This document shows positions 1 through 58,060 of a DNA stretch of 64,000 nt, in pieces. Source of the stretch: an uncultured Candidatus Saccharibacteria bacterium (GTDB lineage: Bacteria; Patescibacteriota; UBA1384; XYA2-FULL-43-10; 1-14-0-10-43-13); contig CAYOQP010000005.1 in the NCBI GenBank assembly GCA_964406145.1, positions 834-64,833 on the forward strand. The letters are read 5' to 3'. The number at the start of each line of letters is the position of its first letter. Position 1 is the stretch's first letter. The position numbers were made by a program, and so were the translations under genes. The notes beneath the pieces are model-generated. The model was not told the origin of the DNA. It saw only the letters and a list, made by a program, of their open reading frames with translations, and made no database searches.

Positions 1-900
1 ATAATCATCAGACCAAAATAATTTTGCTGTATTCATTCCTACCACTCCGCAAGCATTGATCAATGGCCCTCCGGAGTTGCCAGGATTAATTGATGCATCA
101 GTTTGGATAATATCTATGCCATCCTCGTTAATCCTTCTTGAAAAAATACCTTTTGTTATTGTTGCCTCGCCCGTAGAATCATTTGGCCAGCCAATTGCAT
201 ACAATGTCTCTGCTGGTTTTAGAGTGCTTGAATCTTGGAGATCGATTTTCCAGTAGAAGTTGTAATCAACTTGGAGTATAGCAATATCCTGATCTGGATA
301 AGCGGCAAAAATTGAGGCATTCATCCATTCTTTGCCATCATAGCCAATCCAAACTTTTATTGTCTTGGCTCCTTCAATGACATGATAATTTGTCATCACC
401 AATCCGCTTGTTGCTGGATCATTAACAGAAAAGCCGCTACCATAGCCGATGAACTGATCCCGCTTATCAAACTGGCCTACTAGATGAGTGCTTGCTTTTG
501 CTTTTCGAATCGTGTCTTGTTCGTCACAGCTTGTACTTGTATTTATTGAGCTGGCACTTGTATTACTGCTTGTCTGATTTGTTGTTTCTCTCGGAGTAGC
601 TACATAGTAGATCGAAATTAGTAAAATTAGTAAAGGGATGATATAGAACCAATTATTAAATCGCTTAGATTTTTTACCACAATATTTGCAGAAAATTGCA
701 TCACGATTGATGACTTCATGGCAATGAGGACATTTCTTTATTGGTAGGCTTTTTTTATCTTCGTCATGTCTGCTAGTGTCTTTATTTCCATTAGCAATAA
801 ATGCCGCTTTGGATTGCCAAAAATGATAACCACACTCTGGGCAAGAATAGACACTTGTGGTATCGATTTTGTGTTCACAACTAGGACACCTGTTTGCCAT
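1..900 (-). CDS. Membrane-anchored trypsin-like serine protease with N-terminal double zinc ribbon (partial; C-terminus beyond window start)
   Basis: Reverse-strand translation from ATG at 900 gives MANRCPSCEH..CPECGY..CPHCHE..CKYCGK (two CxxC pairs), then a TM helix (WFYIIPLLILLISIYYVA) and an S/T-rich linker. The protease domain follows with catalytic-triad-like TNYHVIEG, DIAILQVD and GNSGGPLIN. The ORF runs off the window start. Confidence 0.6.
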   Translation of the reverse strand, partial: MANRCPSCEHKIDTTSVYSCPECGYHFWQSKAAFIANGNKDTSRHDEDKKSLPIKKCPHCHEVINRDAIFCKYCGKKSKRFNNWFYIIPLLILLISIYYVATPRETTNQTSSNTSASSINTSTSCDEQDTIRKAKASTHLVGQFDKRDQFIGYGSGFSVNDPATSGLVMTNYHVIEGAKTIKVWIGYDGKEWMNASIFAAYPDQDIAILQVDYNFYWKIDLQDSSTLKPAETLYAIGWPNDSTGEATITKGIFSRRINEDGIDIIQTDASINPGNSGGPLINACGVVGMNTAKLFWSDDY

Positions 901-915
901 AATATTGCCCTTTGT

Positions 916-1368
916 TTAGTCTAACGGGATAAAAAACCAGATGCCGTTGGCAATTACAAATATAATTATTCCCCAAATATCCCAAGCTTTCTGATTGGCT
1001 ATGAATTCTTTTTTGCTCTCCCATTTCCTGCTCTCCCATGCTATCTGCCTGCCTTTTATGCCAAAAATAATTATCATAATAAACCAAACAATTAACCCTA
1101 TAGTGCCAAAAGCAGTATCATCACTCTTTAATAAACCATTCATAACCATCCCCAGAACGAATAACCATCCCCAAAACGGATATTTCATTCCGCAGAAATA
1201 AATCCATCCTAGACCAAATGCGCCCCAAGACCATCTCTCGTGCGGTCTTTTTGTTGTTTCGCCCTCTCCAGAACTATCAGCTCCATGGTTCAAATGCGAA
1301 GATTCTCCGCAATGGATACAAAATTTAGAATCATTATCAATTTCCTTGCCACAATGCCTACAATACAT
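916..1368 (-). CDS. Zinc-ribbon domain membrane protein
   Basis: N-terminus MYCRHCGKEIDNDSKFCIHCGE (CxxC-x11-CxxC zinc ribbon), followed by about 4 hydrophobic helices. Paralogous N-terminus to its two neighbours. Confidence 0.5.
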   Translation of the reverse strand: MYCRHCGKEIDNDSKFCIHCGESSHLNHGADSSGEGETTKRPHERWSWGAFGLGWIYFCGMKYPFWGWLFVLGMVMNGLLKSDDTAFGTIGLIVWFIMIIIFGIKGRQIAWESRKWESKKEFIANQKAWDIWGIIIFVIANGIWFFIPLD

Positions 1369-1375
1369 TTTTCTC

Positions 1376-1906
1376 CTATTCTATGCACAGTTTCTTTAAT
1401 TCATCGTTTTGAAATTTATTATTAATTTCAGCCTCAAAAAAATCTAGAAATGTTGAAAAACTCTTTTTTGAATAATTATCGGGATACCAAGAAGCGCATT
1501 GAATTGTTTCAAAATCAGGGGTGCTAAAATAAGTTATGATCGAGGCATTATTTAAATCATTTAGGATTCTGGTAAGATCATCTTTATTTTTCTCTGATTT
1601 CATCGTTTTGATAGTGTATACGGAAACGATTGTTATGACTGGAAATTGATGAAAATATGAGATAATTAAATTTGGATGGTTAACATGCGTTGCTGTAAAT
1701 AGAATACGGTTTTCCTCCTTCTGATCCTCACTCATTTCATAGCCGATAAATTCGAGGTGATTTCTTATTTCTTCCAAACTTTTGGAAGCATCCATTTTTA
1801 TCGGCTTGACTTCCTCGGTTGTTTCCTCGCTGTTTACCTTTTCACCACAATGTACACAAAATTTACTGTCCGAAGGAATTGTATTGTTGCAATTTTTACA
1901 TTCCAT
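1376..1906 (-). CDS. Zinc-ribbon domain protein with soluble C-terminal domain (YbjN-like?)
   Basis: N-terminus MECKNCNNTIPSDSKFCVHCGEKV (zinc ribbon), then a soluble domain of about 150 aa. The C-terminal assignment is weak. Confidence 0.45.
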   Translation of the reverse strand: MECKNCNNTIPSDSKFCVHCGEKVNSEETTEEVKPIKMDASKSLEEIRNHLEFIGYEMSEDQKEENRILFTATHVNHPNLIISYFHQFPVITIVSVYTIKTMKSEKNKDDLTRILNDLNNASIITYFSTPDFETIQCASWYPDNYSKKSFSTFLDFFEAEINNKFQNDELKKLCIE

Positions 1907-21094: not shown

Positions 21095-21313
21095 ATGTCT
21101 GATGTGTGCGTTCAGTGCGCAAAACGCAAAGAAACAGGCCCCAAGGCCTGCCTCTCCTGTGAAATCAGCGAGGCCGGGCACCACCGGTGCCAACACTGCC
21201 ACGCCGCAGTAAAAGACGGCGCGCTCCAGTGCTCAATCTGCTTCGCGATCCAACGCGAGCATTTCCCCAGTCCCGACCCCCTACTCTTGTCACAATTCAA
21301 TCCAGGAATGTGA
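21095..21313 (+). CDS. GC-rich small Cys-rich protein (4x CxxC)
   Basis: Perfect SD (ttaggaggttaccatATG). Motifs CVQC..CLSC..CQHC..CSIC. Codon usage is GC-rich, unlike the flanking genes. Confidence 0.45.
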   Translation: MSDVCVQCAKRKETGPKACLSCEISEAGHHRCQHCHAAVKDGALQCSICFAIQREHFPSPDPLLLSQFNPGM

Positions 21314-22670: not shown

Positions 22671-23532
22671 CTTGGAACTTGGGATACTTTTGGGCTTAAT
22701 TGCTTTAATAAGCGGCGGACTTTCTAACGCCATGGTAAAGACACCTTCTCAAGTTGAGGGGGTAAATAAAACAATATTCTATAGAAATCTATTTATTACA
22801 ATTTTGCTTCTGGCTCTAGTCATATTAACACCAGATAAAACAAATTTCAGTTGGAAATATGCAATTTTTACTTTTCTCCTGGCAATTTTCGGCTACATCC
22901 CAATGTATTATTATTACAAAGCGACTACAGTCGGTAAAATTGGTGTCGTCTCACCAGTATCGTCAGGAAATATCTTAATAGCCATAATCTTAGCAACAAT
23001 ATTTTTCCATGAAAGACTGACATCATTGCAATACCTCGCTATTGCAGTCATTATTTTTGGCGTTGTTTTGATTTCTCTTAATGTTAAAGACTTCAAATCA
23101 TCAAAGATTTTTCAAGTTGAAAGCGGCATACCATATGCCCTTATTGCCGCTTTGGGTTGGGGAATTTGGATGGCTTTTGTAAAAATATCAATCGATAATC
23201 TGGGTCCATATCTTGCCTCATTCATCGGAGAACTAACTATTTTGTTGATTGCGACATTCCTGCTTATAAAATCCAAAGAAAATTTTGGACTGAAAACAAA
23301 TAAATCATTATATTTCTTACTTCCTATAGCAATTTTTCTTTTTGCCTGGGAAATCGGCTATTATACCGGATTAAAAGTAGCTAACGTCAGTATTATTGTT
23401 GCGCTCTCCTCTGCCAGCCCAATAGTTGTCGCTCTTTTTGGCCGATTTTTTTACAAAGAAAAACTGTCTTCAAAACAGTATATGGCAATAATGATTATAA
23501 TTATTGGAATGATAGCGCTCTCAATAAAATAA
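22663..23532 (+). CDS. EamA/DMT-family transporter
   Basis: 10 predicted TM helices; two EamA-like repeats; 289 aa. Confidence 0.75.
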   Translation: MNNLELGILLGLIALISGGLSNAMVKTPSQVEGVNKTIFYRNLFITILLLALVILTPDKTNFSWKYAIFTFLLAIFGYIPMYYYYKATTVGKIGVVSPVSSGNILIAIILATIFFHERLTSLQYLAIAVIIFGVVLISLNVKDFKSSKIFQVESGIPYALIAALGWGIWMAFVKISIDNLGPYLASFIGELTILLIATFLLIKSKENFGLKTNKSLYFLLPIAIFLFAWEIGYYTGLKVANVSIIVALSSASPIVVALFGRFFYKEKLSSKQYMAIMIIIIGMIALSIK

Positions 23533-23587
23533 CCGCCCCGAACCAAATGTGTGTATGGTTGGGGCGGGAAGGCTTCCCTGATGCTGG

Positions 23588-23785
23588 TCAGGAAAGGCGG
23601 ACGGTCGCCTGGCGTTCTTCGCCGGTATTCTGACCAGTCCAGGTGACGATGGCATGAACGCCGTCGAGTTGGCCGACAACTCGCACCTCGCCATCTTTCG
23701 GCGGATCAGTCGACAAGAAGTTGGTCTCAACTTCATCGGAGACATGGGCTGTGATACCCTTAACACGAAACGTCTGATCGGGCAT
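23588..23785 (-). CDS. GC-rich small hypothetical protein (65 aa)
   Basis: aaggagg SD followed by an ATG that begins MPDQTFRVKGITAHV. The ORF track extends the frame to 23860 but the SD supports 23785. Confidence 0.35.
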   Translation of the reverse strand: MPDQTFRVKGITAHVSDEVETNFLSTDPPKDGEVRVVGQLDGVHAIVTWTGQNTGEERQATVRLS

Positions 23786-23865
23786 GGCTTCCTCCTTTAT
23801 AGATGCCAAGAATTGGGAAGATTGTGCTTGCAGGATAACACTTATTATGAATTTGAGCAAGACTA

Positions 23866-23892
23866 AAATAGCCCCACTTAGTGGGGCTATTT
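23866..23892. terminator. Bidirectional terminator aaatagccccac-tta-gtggggctattt
   Basis: 12-bp perfect inverted repeat with T runs on both strands, immediately downstream of the PEP synthase stop. Confidence 0.65.
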
Positions 23893-23901
23893 TATATACA
23901 C

Positions 23902-47269: not shown

Positions 47270-47360
47270 ATTCTGATATTAGCCCAAAGGAGTTTAAAAA
47301 GAAAGAAAAACAATCGGCCCCCGAATTGTAGTACGGGAGCCGACGGCTGGGTGAACGGCC

Positions 47361-47519
47361 TTATACGGCCTGACGCTGTTGCTGCTTGCGCAGTTCCTGG
47401 CGATGACGCCGGGAGCCTTGAGGCGCGGCCTTGACCTTACCGGCGTTTTTGCCGGTGACCTTTGCGCCCTTGGGGCAGTGATGACGAGACTTGCGCTTCG
47501 CGCCATTGGAACGAGACAA
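47361..47519 (-). CDS. GC-rich small highly basic ORF (52 aa); frame uncertain
   Basis: ggagg SD followed 6 nt later by TTG. Translation MSRSNGAKRKSRHHCPKGAKVTGKNAGKVKAAPQGSRRHRQELRKQQQRQAV. The alternative overlapping frames listed in the ORF track (47294-47548 minus; 47379-47588 plus) lack an RBS. Confidence 0.25.
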   Translation of the reverse strand: MSRSNGAKRKSRHHCPKGAKVTGKNAGKVKAAPQGSRRHRQELRKQQQRQAV

Positions 47520-47613
47520 GATGGACCTCCTCTGTGGCAAACGACCACTATGCGGGATGGAATATATTTACAGAAAATTTTAGATTAAGTCAAATTGTGC
47601 CATAAACGTAGCT

Positions 47614-47640
47614 GCGCCCCCCGAACAGGTCGGGGGGCGC
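47614..47640. terminator. Strong GC hairpin gcgccccccga-acagg-tcggggggcgc
   Basis: 11-bp perfect inverted repeat just downstream of the stop of the 47653-48840 gene. Confidence 0.5.
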
Positions 47641-47652
47641 AGGATAGCAGGG

Positions 47653-48840
47653 TCAGAGCCCTGCGTTGGACATGATACGGCGGATTTTGTCCTCGCCGAA
47701 AGGGTGGTCGAACGAACGCCAACCGGCGAGCTTCATGCCGCTTTCTTGCGCGATCAGGCGCAGGTGCTGAAGCCAGTCCAAATTGACATCACCGACCGAG
47801 TAGACGCCCTGGAAGTTGCCCATCAGAGCGATCAGGATCGTCTCGGCCATACAGGCGAAGAGCGTGCCCTTGTCGAAACCGAAGGTAAAGCTCTGCTTCA
47901 TGAAGGGACAGGACACAACACCGCCATCGACGACGAAGATGTCGTCCCGAGCCGAGACAAGCTGAAGAGCAATGTCACGAGGACGAGCAACGTCGACGAC
48001 GACAGTCCCTGGCAGGAGCCAGCGGGGATCAATAGCCAGAGTATCGGCCGAAGATGAGACAGCCAGGATCAGCTTGCTCTGACGGATAGCTCCCCCAAGA
48101 TCAGAGATGATCACTTTAGCATTCGTGTGCTTGTGCAGATCCTGTTTCAGCTCAGCGAGACGAGATGAGGTGTCACCAGCACGACCAACAAGATAGATAG
48201 TGTTGCTCCAATCAAGCTCGGAGGCAAGTAGAAAGGCGGAATTGCGTCCGACTAATCCGGCGGCACCGATCACGGCAACCGAAGCACCTCCGAGCCAGTG
48301 TCCAACGTGCCTAAAAAGCCCCAAAGCCCCAGACACAGCCATGACGCTGGTGAAGCCGTTACCAGAGGTAACCGCAATCTGTTTCCCGTACTCCGAACCA
48401 ATCGTCTTGGCCAGACCATTGATCGCTGTTGCGCCACCAAGGCCAACCACGTTAGCACGTAGTCCGCTGATAGAATGACGAACACTTCCTCGAATGCGAC
48501 GAAGAGCCTCATCCTGATTGTCAAGAATCTCTCGGGCCGACATCGGCACACCGAGATAGATCATCTCAATCTCCCGAATCATTCCTTCAAACGGGAGAAC
48601 AGTAACAAAGCTTCCCATCCTGAGAAGCGGCGGCGGCAATCTCTTGAGAGCTCCCAAGATGACCTTGCCGCTGAAAGGAGCAGTGAATGGATACTTTCGG
48701 ACCACCAAGTCTCTTACATAATTGGGGTCATCTGTATCCGGGTTAACGGTGAAAGCACACCTTGTGATGCTTGCGGGCAAGTCACTCATGTGGCAACCCT
48801 CCTTACAGAATATCGCTTGAGGCGACACCTGATAGTACAA
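47653..48840 (-). CDS. GC-rich Rossmann-fold (NAD(P)-binding) oxidoreductase-like protein, function unknown
   Basis: Glycine-rich dinucleotide-binding stretches GLGGATAINGLAKTIG and VIGAAGLVGRN; about 55% GC versus about 37% in the flanks. Confidence 0.5.
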   Translation of the reverse strand: MYYQVSPQAIFCKEGCHMSDLPASITRCAFTVNPDTDDPNYVRDLVVRKYPFTAPFSGKVILGALKRLPPPLLRMGSFVTVLPFEGMIREIEMIYLGVPMSAREILDNQDEALRRIRGSVRHSISGLRANVVGLGGATAINGLAKTIGSEYGKQIAVTSGNGFTSVMAVSGALGLFRHVGHWLGGASVAVIGAAGLVGRNSAFLLASELDWSNTIYLVGRAGDTSSRLAELKQDLHKHTNAKVIISDLGGAIRQSKLILAVSSSADTLAIDPRWLLPGTVVVDVARPRDIALQLVSARDDIFVVDGGVVSCPFMKQSFTFGFDKGTLFACMAETILIALMGNFQGVYSVGDVNLDWLQHLRLIAQESGMKLAGWRSFDHPFGEDKIRRIMSNAGL

Positions 48841-49011
48841 TCTTATTACATATTTGTCAATAAATATATTCGTATTTAATTCTTTCTTAAACCATTGACA
48901 ATAGAGACAAAAATTGCTACAATTTCATCTTGGAAAATTTGCAACTGTCGATCTGACGGTTTTTTTATTTGCCGCCAGATCAAACTGTTACAAGAGGAGT
49001 AACTAACGCCC

Positions 49012-49338
49012 ATGGTCATGCTAAATCAAGCAACCACCCCACCAGTCAGTACCAGCAGCATAAGTCATAGCAATCACAGCTTTGACCTGCGGGTGTTGCA
49101 AGTTAGAGAAACCCAGTGGCGCACCAGATTGGGCGCCGCCCTCGATATCATCGAGGAGGGCGACCTCGAATTGGTCAGTAAATACATCATCCCGATGTTG
49201 TCTGACCGCTCGAAAGTCGTCCGTCAAAAAGTCCATCGCGAGATGGTCTCACTGTTCGGAACCTATTTCCCCCCCTTCATCTCCTTCGCCCGGCGGGAAA
49301 TGTTCTGGATGAAAGAAAAAGAGCGAGAGCTCTTATAA
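49012..49338 (+). CDS. GC-rich hypothetical protein
   Basis: 108-aa ORF within the GC-rich island; no motifs. Confidence 0.3.
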   Translation: MVMLNQATTPPVSTSSISHSNHSFDLRVLQVRETQWRTRLGAALDIIEEGDLELVSKYIIPMLSDRSKVVRQKVHREMVSLFGTYFPPFISFARREMFWMKEKERELL

Positions 49339-49451
49339 ATGCGTGCCCTTCGGGGCCGCATACTACCGAAGACAGACGGCCAGCTGGCCGTCCTGAATCA
49401 TTTAAACCACAAAAACTCGTTTTTCAAGATAAAATTTGCTAAGATAGCCTC

Positions 49452-54964: not shown

Positions 54965-55243
54965 TTAGAGAATACCCAAGATATCTTCTTCATGCATTAT
55001 TTTGTATTCCTTGCCATCAATTTTGATTTCGTCACCCGAGTACTTCGAATAAAGAACTTTATCGTCAATCTTGACTGAGAATTCATACTTTTTGCCGTCT
55101 TTCATTTTGCCATTTCCTAGGGCAACAATCTTACCCTGAGCTGGTGCTTCTTTGGCGGTGTCAGGAATGAAAATACCACTTTTAGTCTTCTCCTCTGCGG
55201 CTAGAGGTGAAATTAAAACCCTGTTTGACAAAGGTTTAAACAT
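54965..55243 (-). CDS. groES: Co-chaperonin GroES
   Basis: [32 protein letters not shown]; 92 aa. Confidence 0.95.
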
Positions 55244-55311
55244 AATAATCTCCTTTTTCTTGCCATCTATTACTGAAGAGACAAGTTTCTTATTAATTAA
55301 TACACGAGTAA

Positions 55312-55340
55312 TTGTAAAGTAAACTTTACATTTTTGTCAA
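55312..55340 (-). promoter_or_regulatory. groES promoter (TTGACA-N18-TACAAT) overlapped by palindromic operator TGTAAAGT-AA-ACTTTACA
   Basis: Minus strand reads ttgacaaaaaTGTAAAGTttACTTTACAat. The -35/-10 hexamers and the 8-bp perfect inverted repeat are seen directly. It is not the CIRCE sequence. Confidence 0.5.
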
Positions 55341-55444
55341 GACTGCTTTTGCTCAATTTTGAGAACAAAAAACGGCAACAATCCAAGGGGGAAAGATCGT
55401 TGCCGCACATTCAATATATCTAATTTCAAGCACTAAAGTCAAGC

Positions 55445-55478
55445 TAAAAAACGATTGCCGGAGTCAGAAGACTCCGGC
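55445..55478 (-). terminator. Terminator gccggagtc-ttct-gactccggc followed by T6 (minus strand)
   Basis: Downstream of the Cys-rich two-gene unit. Confidence 0.6.
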
Positions 55479-55525
55479 GGACATGGACATTACTACTTGT
55501 ATACTTCAGCGCGAGTCTCAAGGAC

Positions 55526-55831
55526 TCACGCGACTCTTCTCGCTTTAATCTGTAGAGCCACCTCTTCTCCGTAAAGAATGACTTGGCAACTCGGACAGAT
55601 CGTCGTTGTCTCGCACTCCTCTTCGGGCATGCTAGACGTCGCTTGGAATTCACCAAGCTTGGCGCGACAATGGCCACAACGCAACTCCATCGTCACAATT
55701 CGAGGAATGCGACTTCGGAGCCCTTCGTCAATGGTTTTGAAGCATTGACCACAAAGACTGTTGGAACCACGGTCGAGGCCGATCAGGGCACCACAGTTGA
55801 CACAATTGTCCAATGCGATAGATTCGCTCAT
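55526..55831 (-). CDS. GC-rich Cys-rich protein (4x CxxC; double zinc-ribbon-like), 101 aa
   Basis: Perfect SD taggaggagaagtcgaATG at 55831. Motifs CVNC..CGQC..CGHC..CPSC. The ORF-track version (to 55936) overlaps the upstream gene; the SD-supported start avoids the overlap. Confidence 0.45.
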   Translation of the reverse strand: MSESIALDNCVNCGALIGLDRGSNSLCGQCFKTIDEGLRSRIPRIVTMELRCGHCRAKLGEFQATSSMPEEECETTTICPSCQVILYGEEVALQIKARRVA

Positions 55832-55844
55832 TCGACTTCTCCTC

Positions 55845-56120
55845 CTAGACGTCATGCACCAGCAGACGCTCTCCACTCCTTGCGAGAACCATAAGGACAT
55901 CCTCGTTGGAACATCCTGTCGGAGAAAGCAAGGCAAATTTCAGACGAACAGCGTACTCATCGGGCAAATAGACTTGGTACCTATGATCATTACCACAATC
56001 ACAAACAACGGAAAGACCGCTTGAAAGCATACGCTTACAAGACGGACAGACATCGTCCACTGTTTCGAAAGTTGCTGTAAATGCAAGCCGACAAAGCCGA
56101 CATCCACAGAGAACCTTCAT
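55845..56120 (-). CDS. GC-rich Cys-rich protein, 91 aa
   Basis: SD aatcaggaggtatctggATG. Motifs CGCRLC..CPSC..CDCG. Immediately upstream of, and co-oriented with, the 55526-55831 gene. Confidence 0.4.
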   Translation of the reverse strand: MKVLCGCRLCRLAFTATFETVDDVCPSCKRMLSSGLSVVCDCGNDHRYQVYLPDEYAVRLKFALLSPTGCSNEDVLMVLARSGERLLVHDV

Positions 56121-56413
56121 CCAGATACCTCCTGATTTTACTTATTACAACTTTTAATTGTTTCTGTCAAGTTTATTGCTTTGGCTTTTGATTATTAAAT
56201 CTAGGACTCTTTTTGAGCCTTGGGGATAAAAAATATTTGCAATTTTTTACATTTTTTACTATGATCTACTTAACAAAATCATAGTATCCTCAAAAAAAAC
56301 TCCACAAAAAATCCATCAGGAGTTTTTTGCTTGTTTGATTGCTCGAAAGCTGATAAGCAAGTACGTATTGAGACTAGTACCTATTAGCTTATCAACTTAC
56401 ATGCTGGAGTAAT

Positions 56414-58060
56414 ATGGCGTCTAGAAAGTTCATTTTCGTTGTTGGTGGTGTAATGTCTGGAGTCGGCAAGGGTGTTGCCGCCGCTTCTATCGGAGCAATT
56501 TTGAAGTCAAAAGGATTCAAGATTACTGCAATGAAAGCTGACCCATACATCAACGTCGACGCAGGAACGATGAATCCAACTGAGCATGGTGAAGTTTACG
56601 TTACTAAAGATGGCGATGAATGTGATCAAGACATGGGAAACTATGAAAGATTTCTCAATGAGGATCTCACCCGAACTAACTATATGACAACTGGCCGAAT
56701 CTATCAGTCGGTCATTAACAGAGAACGCAATCTTGAATATGGTGGCAAATGCGTTCAGGTTGTTCCGCACGTACCGGAAGAAATTATTAGAAGAATTAAA
56801 ACTGCCGCTCGCAAGGAAAAAGCTGAGATAACTTTAGTTGAGATAGGCGGCACAGTTGGCGAATATGAAAACCTCCTATTTCTTGAAGCCGCCAGAATGA
56901 TGAAACTTGATACGCCCAAGGATGTTATTATTGTTGTTGTCTCTTATTTGCCAATTCCGTCTAAAATCGGAGAAATGAAGACAAAGCCGACTCAACACGC
57001 CATTCGCGAACTCAACGCTTGTGGTCTACAGGCTGACTTCATTCTCTGTCGAAGCGAATATCCGATTGACGAAAAGAGACGTGAGAAGTTGGCAACATTC
57101 TGCTCAATAGAGCCAAGTAACGCCGTTTCAGCTCCGGATGTAGACTCTATTTATGAAATTCCTGTTAATTTTGAAAATGAAAAACTCGGCGAAAAAGTTC
57201 TAAAAAGATTACATCTAAAGCCGAGACAAAAGGATCTCGTCGAGTGGCGTGGTTTCGTTGAAAAGTCAAAAAATGCCAAGAAAGTTGTCAAAATAGGAAT
57301 CGTCGGCAAGTATTTCGAGACCGGCCAATTTGTTTTATCTGATTCCTACATATCGGTAATCGAGTCAGTCAAAATCGCGGCCTGGCATCAGGGATATAGA
57401 CCAGAAATGGTTTGGCTATCCTCAACTGAATATGAAAACGATCCTAATAAATTAAAGGAACTGAATAATCTCGATGGTATTATCGTTCCTGGTGGGTTCG
57501 GATCACGTGGAATCGAAGGTAAAGTTGCCGTAGCCAAATACTGTCGCGAACACAAAATCCCCTACTTTGGTCTCTGTTATGGTATGCAAATCGAAACAAT
57601 CGAGTTTGCCCGCAACGTCTGTGGATTAAAGGGTGCTCACACAGAAGAAATAGATCCCAAAACTCCTCATCCAGTCATACATATTATGCCTGATCAAAAA
57701 GAAAAACTTAGGAAGAAAGATTATGGTGGATCGATGAGACTTGGAGAGTATGCCTGCGAGCTTCAAAAAGACTCTATCTCATACGAGGCATACAAAAAAT
57801 ATGGAATTCCGGCAGGTGAATTTCCAGTTATCATGGAACGACACCGACACAGATATGAACTTAATAATGATTATAAAGATAAGCTCGAGAAAGCAGGATT
57901 AAGAATCGGCGGCATCAATCCTGAAAGAAATCTTGTCGAGATAGTTGAAGTTAAAAATCATCCATTTATGGTTGGAGTCCAATTTCATCCAGAGTTTGAT
58001 TCTCGTCCCCTACGACCTCAAGCGCTCTTCATGGCCTTTATAAAAGCCGCAAGTAAATAG
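56414..58060 (+). CDS. pyrG: CTP synthase
   Basis: N-terminal synthetase domain VTGGV-like (VVGGVMSGVGKG) and C-terminal glutamine amidotransferase GLCYGMQ..HPEF. Confidence 0.95.
   Translation: MASRKFIFVVGGVMSGVGKGVAAASIGAILKSKGFKITAMKADPYINVDAGTMNPTEHGEVYVTKDGDECDQDMGNYERFLNEDLTRTNYMTTGRIYQSVINRERNLEYGGKCVQVVPHVPEEIIRRIKTAARKEKAEITLVEIGGTVGEYENLLFLEAARMMKLDTPKDVIIVVVSYLPIPSKIGEMKTKPTQHAIRELNACGLQADFILCRSEYPIDEKRREKLATFCSIEPSNAVSAPDVDSIYEIPVNFENEKLGEKVLKRLHLKPRQKDLVEWRGFVEKSKNAKKVVKIGIVGKYFETGQFVLSDSYISVIESVKIAAWHQGYRPEMVWLSSTEYENDPNKLKELNNLDGIIVPGGFGSRGIEGKVAVAKYCREHKIPYFGLCYGMQIETIEFARNVCGLKGAHTEEIDPKTPHPVIHIMPDQKEKLRKKDYGGSMRLGEYACELQKDSISYEAYKKYGIPAGEFPVIMERHRHRYELNNDYKDKLEKAGLRIGGINPERNLVEIVEVKNHPFMVGVQFHPEFDSRPLRPQALFMAFIKAASK

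Follow-up and report, generated by a model that had tools for sequence, protein, structure and literature searches.

The divergent interval between groES and pyrG in the 64,000-nucleotide stretch of DNA analysed here (the window; contig CAYOQP010000005.1, from an uncultured Candidatus Saccharibacteria bacterium) contains a GC-rich islet, positions 55440 to 56130, with two small adjacent genes that we call zr1 and zr2. We read zr1-zr2 as a lineage-restricted, vertically maintained operon that lies in an accessory slot found in Berkelbacteria-like members of the Candidate Phyla Radiation (CPR, Patescibacteria) and encodes two small cytoplasmic putative zinc-ribbon proteins passed on together, and put the probability of this reading at about 0.6. 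Loci and proteins used for comparison are designated by L and P numbers. Both genes are real and under purifying selection. They are intact in two diverged sister lineages, at 88 to 90% DNA identity, and the ratio of nonsynonymous to synonymous substitution rates (dN/dS, Nei-Gojobori method, against the two sister lineages) is 0.13–0.17 for zr1 and 0.075–0.15 for zr2. Differences at the first, second and third codon positions number 3, 3 and 15 in one comparison and 4, 2 and 17 in the other for zr1, and 8, 4 and 28 and 7, 3 and 13, respectively, for zr2. All 17 cysteines, eight in zr1 and nine in zr2, are kept across the window, L165/L167 and L166.

As judged by homology, the two genes recur together in a far more diverged lineage (L168), again in this slot, and their family is extremely rare. 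When 5.8 billion proteins were searched through a word index, zr1 and zr2 retrieved themselves only. A full HMMER search of 1.84 billion representative proteins, among which the zr2 family makes up two clusters, revealed one true homologue of zr2, the 115-residue protein P0021 (expectation value E 1.9e-9, 37% identity), in which none of the four CxxC pairs has been lost and the ETTTIC motif is intact. A further match of the zr2 profile is to the repetitive 533-residue protein P0023 (E 6.8e-4). The match to P0022 (E 2.8e-7) was rejected as spurious: this is a 2376-residue repeat protein, of which the repeat GALExLDGIDNDCDGTIDEGL aligns without matching the cysteine ligands.

The L168 locus is present on short contigs, in the order pyrG leader, a gene for a 231-residue nucleotidyltransferase (NTase) of the DNA polymerase beta (Pol-beta) type, a promoter-like site, a 66-residue open reading frame (ORF; 1033..1233) and the gene for P0021. 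The 66-residue ORF is homologous to the carboxy-terminal core of zr1 (BLASTP, E 1e-5), with the CDCGxxH...C motif kept and the amino-terminal ribbon missing. The start of P0021 overlaps this ORF by four nucleotides (ATGA), which suggests translational coupling. As P0021 is accompanied by a zr1-like ORF and lies in the same slot by the pyrG leader, zr1-zr2 is a two-gene module that is conserved yet very rare. All the copies detected (window, L001, L002, L165–L171) sit in the pyrG-groES slot, and profile hidden Markov models (HMMs) of zr1 and zr2 gave no matches in the rest of the window or in the other 160 loci.

The window sequence was matched to metagenome 3300059473 of the Joint Genome Institute (JGI), and independent Logan assemblies of four sequencing runs reproduce it with at most three mismatches. 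The Logan contigs of these four runs all end at 55311..55339, inside the groES promoter; ends in this 29-nucleotide stretch suggest co-occurring strains that share it and differ on either side. On the groES side, an L165 contig from another study, carrying a diverged copy, is unbroken over zr1, zr2, the hairpin RNA gene described below, groES and groEL. On the pyrG side, the sequence from the pyrG leader through zr1 and zr2 is unbroken in L166 and also in L001 and L002, which are independent assemblies. Because each junction is crossed, in sister lineages, by independent contigs of other studies and samples, a chimeric assembly, the concern raised in the preliminary description of this DNA, is excluded.

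The two genes form a pair of minus-strand ORFs in the interval from groES (55243..54965, minus strand) to pyrG (56414..58060, plus strand), separated from each other by 13 nucleotides (55844..55832); their elements are collected in Table 1. The length of zr2 is counted from an ATG internal to a longer, TTG-initiated ORF. In the terminator, the hairpin GCCGGAGTC-TTCT-GACTCCGGC occupies 55478..55457 and is followed by AATCG and, at 55451..55446, by the T6 run. The segment that holds the terminator, 55478..55365, is 96.5% identical to L165 and L167, as against just 65% for the 3' untranslated region, 55525..55479. Upstream of zr1, TTGACA and TGTAATAA are identical in the sister lineages L165 and L166 despite about 13% divergence of the surrounding bases, and we infer that the region with TTGACA and TGTAATAAG is the promoter of zr1-zr2; it was missed by a consensus scan because its -10 hexamer is without T at position 6. 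In the window the two genes would likely be co-transcribed. The layout in the preliminary description is borne out in full: a GC-rich segment of the groES-pyrG divergent region with cysteine-rich genes of 91 and 101 residues 13 nucleotides apart; a strong Shine-Dalgarno sequence ahead of each, AGGAGG in both cases, the second, called textbook, reading taggaggagaagtcgaATG; a terminator with a 9-bp stem and T6; and a two-gene cassette. All of this is on the minus strand, and with a promoter-like site of its own the cassette is self-contained.

Table 1. Elements of the zr1-zr2 unit and of the boundaries of its slot, in window coordinates.
Feature	Position	Strand	Description
Promoter-like region of zr1-zr2	56170..56140	minus	-35 TTGACA at 56170..56165; -10 region TGTAATAAG; spacer about 17–18 nt
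zr1 Shine-Dalgarno sequence	56133..56128	minus	AGGAGG, 7 nt ahead of the zr1 ATG; kept in L165, L166, L167
zr1	56120..55845	minus	91 residues; carries CGCRLC, CPSC, CDCG
zr2 Shine-Dalgarno sequence	55846..55841	minus	AGGAGG, overlaps the zr1 TAG stop; sequence taggaggagaagtcgaATG
zr2	55831..55526	minus	101 residues; carries CVNC, CGQC, CGHC, CPSC
Intrinsic terminator of the zr1-zr2 operon	55478..55446	minus	9-bp stem, 4-nt loop, AATCG, T6
Hairpin RNA gene (slot boundary, outside the cassette)	55442..55365	minus	promoter TTGACT-18-TATATT at 55442..55413; hairpin and U-run at 55412..55365
groES promoter	55340..55311	minus	TTGACA-18-TACAAT; palindrome TGTAAAGT-N2-ACTTTACA between the hexamers, kept in relatives
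pyrG leader hairpin (slot boundary, outside the cassette)	56292..56328	plus	A8CTCC-N15-GGAGT6; kept in L003, L007–L011, L168

The zr1 protein consists of a putative amino-terminal zinc ribbon, CxCxxC...CPSC (residues 5–28), with the ligand spacing C7xxC10-x14-C25xxC28, and of a conserved core, CDCGxxH...C (residues 33–91). By its motifs, zr2 is a double zinc ribbon, with ligands C10xxC13-x13-C27xxC30 in the first ribbon and C52xxC55-x23-C79xxC82 in the second, and contains the conserved motif ETTTIC; all its CxxC ligand pairs are also present in P0005, as they are in P0021. The spacing that characterises the zinc-ribbon fold in general, two CxxC-type knuckles about 10 to 25 residues apart with conserved ligands, thus appears in both proteins. 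The four CxxC motifs of zr2 do not arise by chance: they were matched in none of 20,000 nucleotide shuffles and have P = 0.0015 in residue shuffles, while the cysteine pattern of zr1 alone is weaker (P = 0.02 by shuffling). The amino-terminal ribbon of zr1 (residues 1–32) is weakly similar to the second ribbon of zr2 (E 0.008), which hints at a domain duplication; a profile-profile comparison of zr1 with zr2 detected no relationship (probability 0.8%). Neither protein has an obvious signal peptide or membrane segment on reading of the sequences, and both are slightly acidic, with isoelectric points of 6.0 (zr1) and 5.4 (zr2). They would fold around three or four structural zinc sites, one Cys4 ribbon and one Cys3His site in zr1 and two Cys4 sites in zr2, and are predicted to form a complex and act together. 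Being too small and without enzyme-like similarity, they would function by binding to another molecule, a nucleic acid or a protein, and not as catalysts, and the isoelectric points favour a protein partner.

The slot in which zr1-zr2 resides has a changing content. By pyrG, the window is nearest (71–83% amino-acid identity) to genomes that were assembled from metagenomes and belong to Candidatus Berkelbacteria or other Patescibacteria, and 15 distinct related loci that keep the arrangement of groEL-groES and pyrG were surveyed. None of the 15 contains zr1 or zr2 or matches the islet, and the comparison of presence and absence called for in the preliminary description therefore finds the islet not conserved across relatives. 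Eleven of the loci, including those of the closest relatives (pyrG 85% and 83%), contain a Pol-beta NTase gene of 212 to 245 codons and ordinary GC content, accompanied by an extra GC-rich piece in three of them (L088, L097 and L098). The remaining four (L003, L004, L005 and L094) have no NTase and hold unrelated GC-rich DNA that bears ORFs. The NTase was seen in L007–L011, L085/86, L088, L093, L095, L097–L100 and L168; outside its 30-residue catalytic motif it has no specific family match. The window's lineage has lost the slot NTase. No remnants of the gene were found in the window's slot. The GC-rich inserts of the relatives show no similarity to one another or to the islets of the window by tblastx or blastn. 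Conjecturally, the content of the slot would probably be exchanged by homologous recombination in the strongly conserved sequences on either side of it, with no dedicated mobile-element mechanism. In L005 (3853..5295) and L094 (1413..1916) the GC-rich cargo encodes proteins with an IDLVIVNF-type motif, which recalls the MGS-like amino-terminal domain of PurH (Pfam, just E 0.09), and in L004 and L005 a small gene for a four-helix-bundle-like protein adjoins pyrG.

On the groES side, the slot is bounded by the groESL promoter together with a previously unrecognised hairpin RNA gene, which covaries and belongs to no Rfam family above threshold; the only match is a weak one to CcsR1 (22 bits, gathering score 65). 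Its loop motif UCCCCCUU is near-invariant and its stem covaries, with compensatory changes in eight of 11 pairs (alignment A1). A covariance model (R1) found exactly one copy per related groES-pyrG locus (23 matches, 25–57 bits), whereas loci of more distant Patescibacteria had no copy. The gene adjoins the groES promoter upstream and is present in L003–L011, L085–L100, L165 and L167, with its orientation flipped in L007, L088 and L093. We regard it as a candidate for a small RNA specific to the clade, roughly 45 nucleotides long, the C-rich seed of which is apparently complementary to Shine-Dalgarno sites. The palindrome of the groES promoter, conserved and not a CIRCE element, is therefore probably a heat-shock operator. 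The boundary next to pyrG, its leader hairpin, has the look of an attenuator or of a terminator that acts in both directions; a promoter-like site, TTGCAA-17-TATGAT, lies ahead of it at 56237..56265 (plus strand).

The GC content of 55440..56130 is 0.498, compared with 0.321 in the left flank, 0.300 in the right flank and a window mean of 0.404 (z = 2.4 against windows of equal length, 2% of which reach this value). The GC content at third codon positions (GC3) is 0.53 in zr2 (z = 3.6 against 59 native ORFs) and 0.42 in zr1 (z = 1.2). With GC3 of zr1 near native values, much of its excess GC lies at the first codon position. In zr2, GC at the second position is also raised (0.49 versus about 0.34 in native genes), and the excess is partly a matter of amino-acid content and partly of codon choice. 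The composition, proposed earlier to be foreign, is atypical in the GC content of the islet and in GC3 of zr2, but the deviation is uneven and much smaller in GC3 of zr1. The copy in L168 is GC-rich as well (0.52, GC3 0.58, flank about 0.42). Substitutions in zr1 and zr2 polarised over three sister lineages comprise 39 from G/C to A/T and 22 from A/T to G/C. The high GC would come from a composition rich in Cys, Gly, Arg and Ala together with GC-rich codons, and is best explained by an origin in a gene pool richer in GC, at a time before the split of the three sister lineages; since then the excess would have been decaying slowly under AT-biased mutation in the host.

Several observations weigh against the interpretation as a vertically maintained operon for a pair of zinc-ribbon proteins. 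The asymmetry of the substitutions is modest, and on one of the three branches their direction is ambiguous. High GC3 in two lineages only 37% identical is hard to reconcile with vertical descent and decay of GC; the two copies could instead have been acquired independently from a GC-rich pool, or the composition of the messenger RNA could be under selection. AlphaFold2 models computed without an alignment are of low confidence (mean predicted local distance difference test scores, pLDDT, of 42 for zr1 and 52 for zr2) and allow no meaningful fold comparison; a Foldseek search of the PDB with them returned nothing at E <= 0.001. Zinc-ribbon matches to zr1 and zr2 in Pfam and NCBIfam, with single sequences and with profiles, are all below threshold, and function is not established by any match. 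Taking a score at or above the gathering threshold as membership of a Pfam family, the double zinc-ribbon families (DZR, PF12773; DZR_2, PF18912; Zn_ribbon_6, PF07191) give 13–15 bits for zr2, with cut-offs of 25–27, and no match for zr1 or P0021.

Four other parts of the window have high GC content or zinc-ribbon motifs. At 21.1 kb, a plus-strand ORF of 72 residues (21095..21313) lies between two HD-domain-like genes; it has four CxxC motifs, a double zinc ribbon by motif, and an AGGAGG Shine-Dalgarno sequence. Its GC content is 0.58 and its GC3 0.66 (z = 6.4), its match to Pfam Zn_Ribbon_1 (19 bits) is below the cut-off, and the protein collection has no entry identical to it. The largest GC-rich islet, 47270..49450 (GC 0.54–0.59), contains a minus-strand ORF of 378 to 395 residues with weak Rossmann-type matches (PF01488, PF01118), dehydrogenase-like and with ordinary relatives (85%, 65%, 44% and about 30–36% identity), for which the JGI product name is fatty aldehyde-generating acyl-ACP reductase. 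It also contains a plus-strand ORF of 108 residues without known relatives and a GC-rich ORF of 84 residues of doubtful reality. The islet at 23530..23900 (GC about 0.54) has a minus-strand ORF of 90 residues that is not cysteine-rich, lacks a Shine-Dalgarno sequence and a family match and is absent from the protein collection; this islet may be non-coding. At the start of the window (1..1906, minus strand), three consecutive ORFs have zinc-ribbon amino-termini, MANRCPSCEHK..., MYCRHCGKEIDNDSKFCIHCGE... and MECKNCNNTIPSDSKFCVHCGE...; they are of ordinary GC content and unrelated to the islet genes.

Alternative explanations of the islet concern its nature, its mobility and its function. That it is non-coding (a structured RNA), that its ORFs are spurious products of a GC-rich stretch, or that it is an assembly chimera is extremely improbable. 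GC-rich DNA is poor in stop codons, plus-strand ORFs overlap the islet, minus-strand RNA folds somewhat better than its shuffles (z = -3.2, from 20 shuffles only) and the Logan contigs of four samples break nearby; a non-coding islet is nevertheless refuted by the third-position bias of the substitutions and by dN/dS values well below 1 in exactly the zr1 and zr2 frames, and the CxxC statistics, the distant protein-level homologue P0021 and the lack of any Rfam match inside the islet also speak against these readings. A chimera is incompatible with the contiguous independent assemblies over both junctions. The preliminary description saw in zr1-zr2 a member, together with the 21.1-kb islet, of a recurring class of GC-rich, cysteine-rich small-protein cassettes, possibly mobile mini-elements, and of the window's five GC-rich islets, two do encode small CxxC-rich proteins with an AGGAGG Shine-Dalgarno sequence. 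Pairwise and HMM comparisons, however, gave no homology between the 21.1-kb ORF and zr1 or zr2: it does not align with zr1 at E <= 100, the alignment with zr2 (E 0.034) covers CxxC residues only and is not significant, and the zr1 and zr2 family HMMs do not retrieve it. The two islets share only high GC, generic CxxC knuckles and the AGGAGG sequence, no DNA or translated similarity exists among the islets, and the others, at 23.6 kb and 47.3–49.4 kb, encode proteins that are not cysteine-rich, one of them from the ordinary dehydrogenase-like family. The class therefore does not hold, and the recurring element of this genome is not a cysteine-rich family but lineage-specific DNA of high GC content that occupies intergenic slots. 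Neither does mobility find support: no terminal inverted repeats or target duplications are present at the 55440 and 56130 edges, a repeat search of 55244..56413 yielded only short matches of 10–13 nucleotides consistent with chance, none at the edges, no recombinase ORF is present, and the pair keeps the same slot under purifying selection in diverged lineages. We consider a mobile mini-element of such a family very unlikely.

As to function, the pair might be a horizontally acquired conflict module (a toxin-antitoxin, anti-phage defence or anti-defence pair) caught in a hot spot, which we hold to be unlikely on balance. Two small genes that are adjacent here and overlap by four nucleotides in L168, a promoter-like site and a terminator that belong to the pair, an unusual GC content, a patchy distribution and a variable slot that repeatedly holds GC-rich genes without detectable homologues elsewhere would all suit such a module, and the L168 copy adjoins a Pol-beta NTase whose motif is weakly like MntA and HalB (23 bits, far below the cut-offs). 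The NTase, though, is present in 11 of the 15 related loci without zr1-zr2, and hence the two do not form an obligate system. Moreover, families of toxin-antitoxin and defence genes are as a rule widespread and present in multiple copies, unlike the two clusters found for zr2; both proteins are acidic to neutral, and neither is similar to a DNA-binding antitoxin or to any known toxin fold. No match for zr1 or zr2 was obtained in PHROGs, PADLOC or PDB sequences with single sequences or profiles, nor any relative in phages and plasmids (tblastn) or in four viral-contig scans, apart from a single phage match at E 0.2; the toxin or anti-defence role suggested in the preliminary description thus gains nothing from these searches, an absence that does not in itself exclude such roles. 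A stress-related redox or metal function tied to groESL, as rubredoxin-like or Hsp33-like thiol/zinc switches or as zinc buffers, appears doubtful. The knuckles CxxCG and CPxC are of rubredoxin type, the CxC-x27-C spacing of zr1 is reminiscent of the Hsp33 zinc centre, and the module adjoins groES-groEL and the hairpin RNA gene in the same orientation. Neither protein is significantly similar, though, to any metallochaperone family, to rubredoxin or to Hsp33, and a terminator separates zr1-zr2 from the RNA gene and groES. Since most relatives with the same groESL arrangement are without the module, the adjacency looks positional, not functional. Neither the conflict role nor the stress or redox role near groESL has positive support. 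A broader proposal, decidedly speculative, is that the pyrG-groESL slot would be a dedicated capture site that lies beside a clade-specific hairpin RNA and repeatedly gains GC-rich, homologue-less genes. Under this proposal zr1-zr2 would be a new two-component system, such as a zinc-dependent module with which episymbiotic CPR bacteria engage in conflict or interact with a host, its expression possibly tied to the RNA through the loop UCCCCCUU, which looks complementary to Shine-Dalgarno sequences, and through the unusually strong AGGAGG sites of the module.

The lineage-restricted zinc-ribbon operon overturns nothing in current understanding. It represents a new family of a familiar kind, small putative zinc-ribbon proteins, nearly confined to a few CPR lineages: a selected gene pair almost without public relatives in a reduced CPR genome. 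As a real, selected pair with almost no relatives, zr1 and zr2 merit a place in catalogues of small putative zinc-binding proteins. The hairpin RNA and the turnover of the slot are more promising leads than the cassette, and the wider context may matter more. A slot of about 1 kb between two very conserved genes, with differing GC-rich cargo, is a tractable place for following the gain and loss of accessory genes in streamlined symbionts.

The slot resembles flexible genomic islets, or replacement islands, in having conserved flanks around a single position with unrelated cargo in relatives, often of deviant GC content; it differs in being tiny (0.8–2.7 kb) and in that no integrase, tRNA or att site was seen. 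Like type II toxin-antitoxin systems, zr1-zr2 is an operon of two small genes, side by side or overlapping, and has a patchy distribution, whereas, unlike them, it is extremely rare and single-copy and has no toxin or antitoxin similarity or DNA-binding domain; neither zr1, zr2 nor their L168 homologues have similarity to type II toxin-antitoxin profiles of NCBIfam, Pfam or PADLOC. Short motifs of zr1 recall the CSL zinc finger of Dph3/Kti11: CDCGxxxYQVYLPDEY can be paired with CPCGDRFQIYLDDMFE and VCPSCxxML with VCPSCSLMI. The resemblance is insignificant (E 0.66–1.5, about 13 bits), the knuckles are in reversed order compared to zr1 and not collinear, the L168 homologue is without the CPSC knuckle and Pfam zf-CSL was not reported; we regard it as a coincidence of zinc-knuckle motifs and rejected zr1 as a CSL zinc finger. 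The small zinc-finger and zinc-ribbon proteins of prokaryotes, such as those of the Pfam families DZR (PF12773) and Zn_Ribbon_1 (PF13240) and the micro-proteins of Haloferax volcanii, are the nearest in kind. Compared to them, zr1 and zr2 are larger, have two sites each and occur as a fixed pair, and their Pfam and NCBIfam scores are about 15 bits, with gathering thresholds of 25–28. They have in common with them the small size, the paired CxxC knuckles spaced as in a ribbon and a non-enzymatic, presumed binding role; deletion mutants of the one-domain zinc-finger micro-proteins of Haloferax volcanii are reported to have condition-specific phenotypes (PMC6562870).

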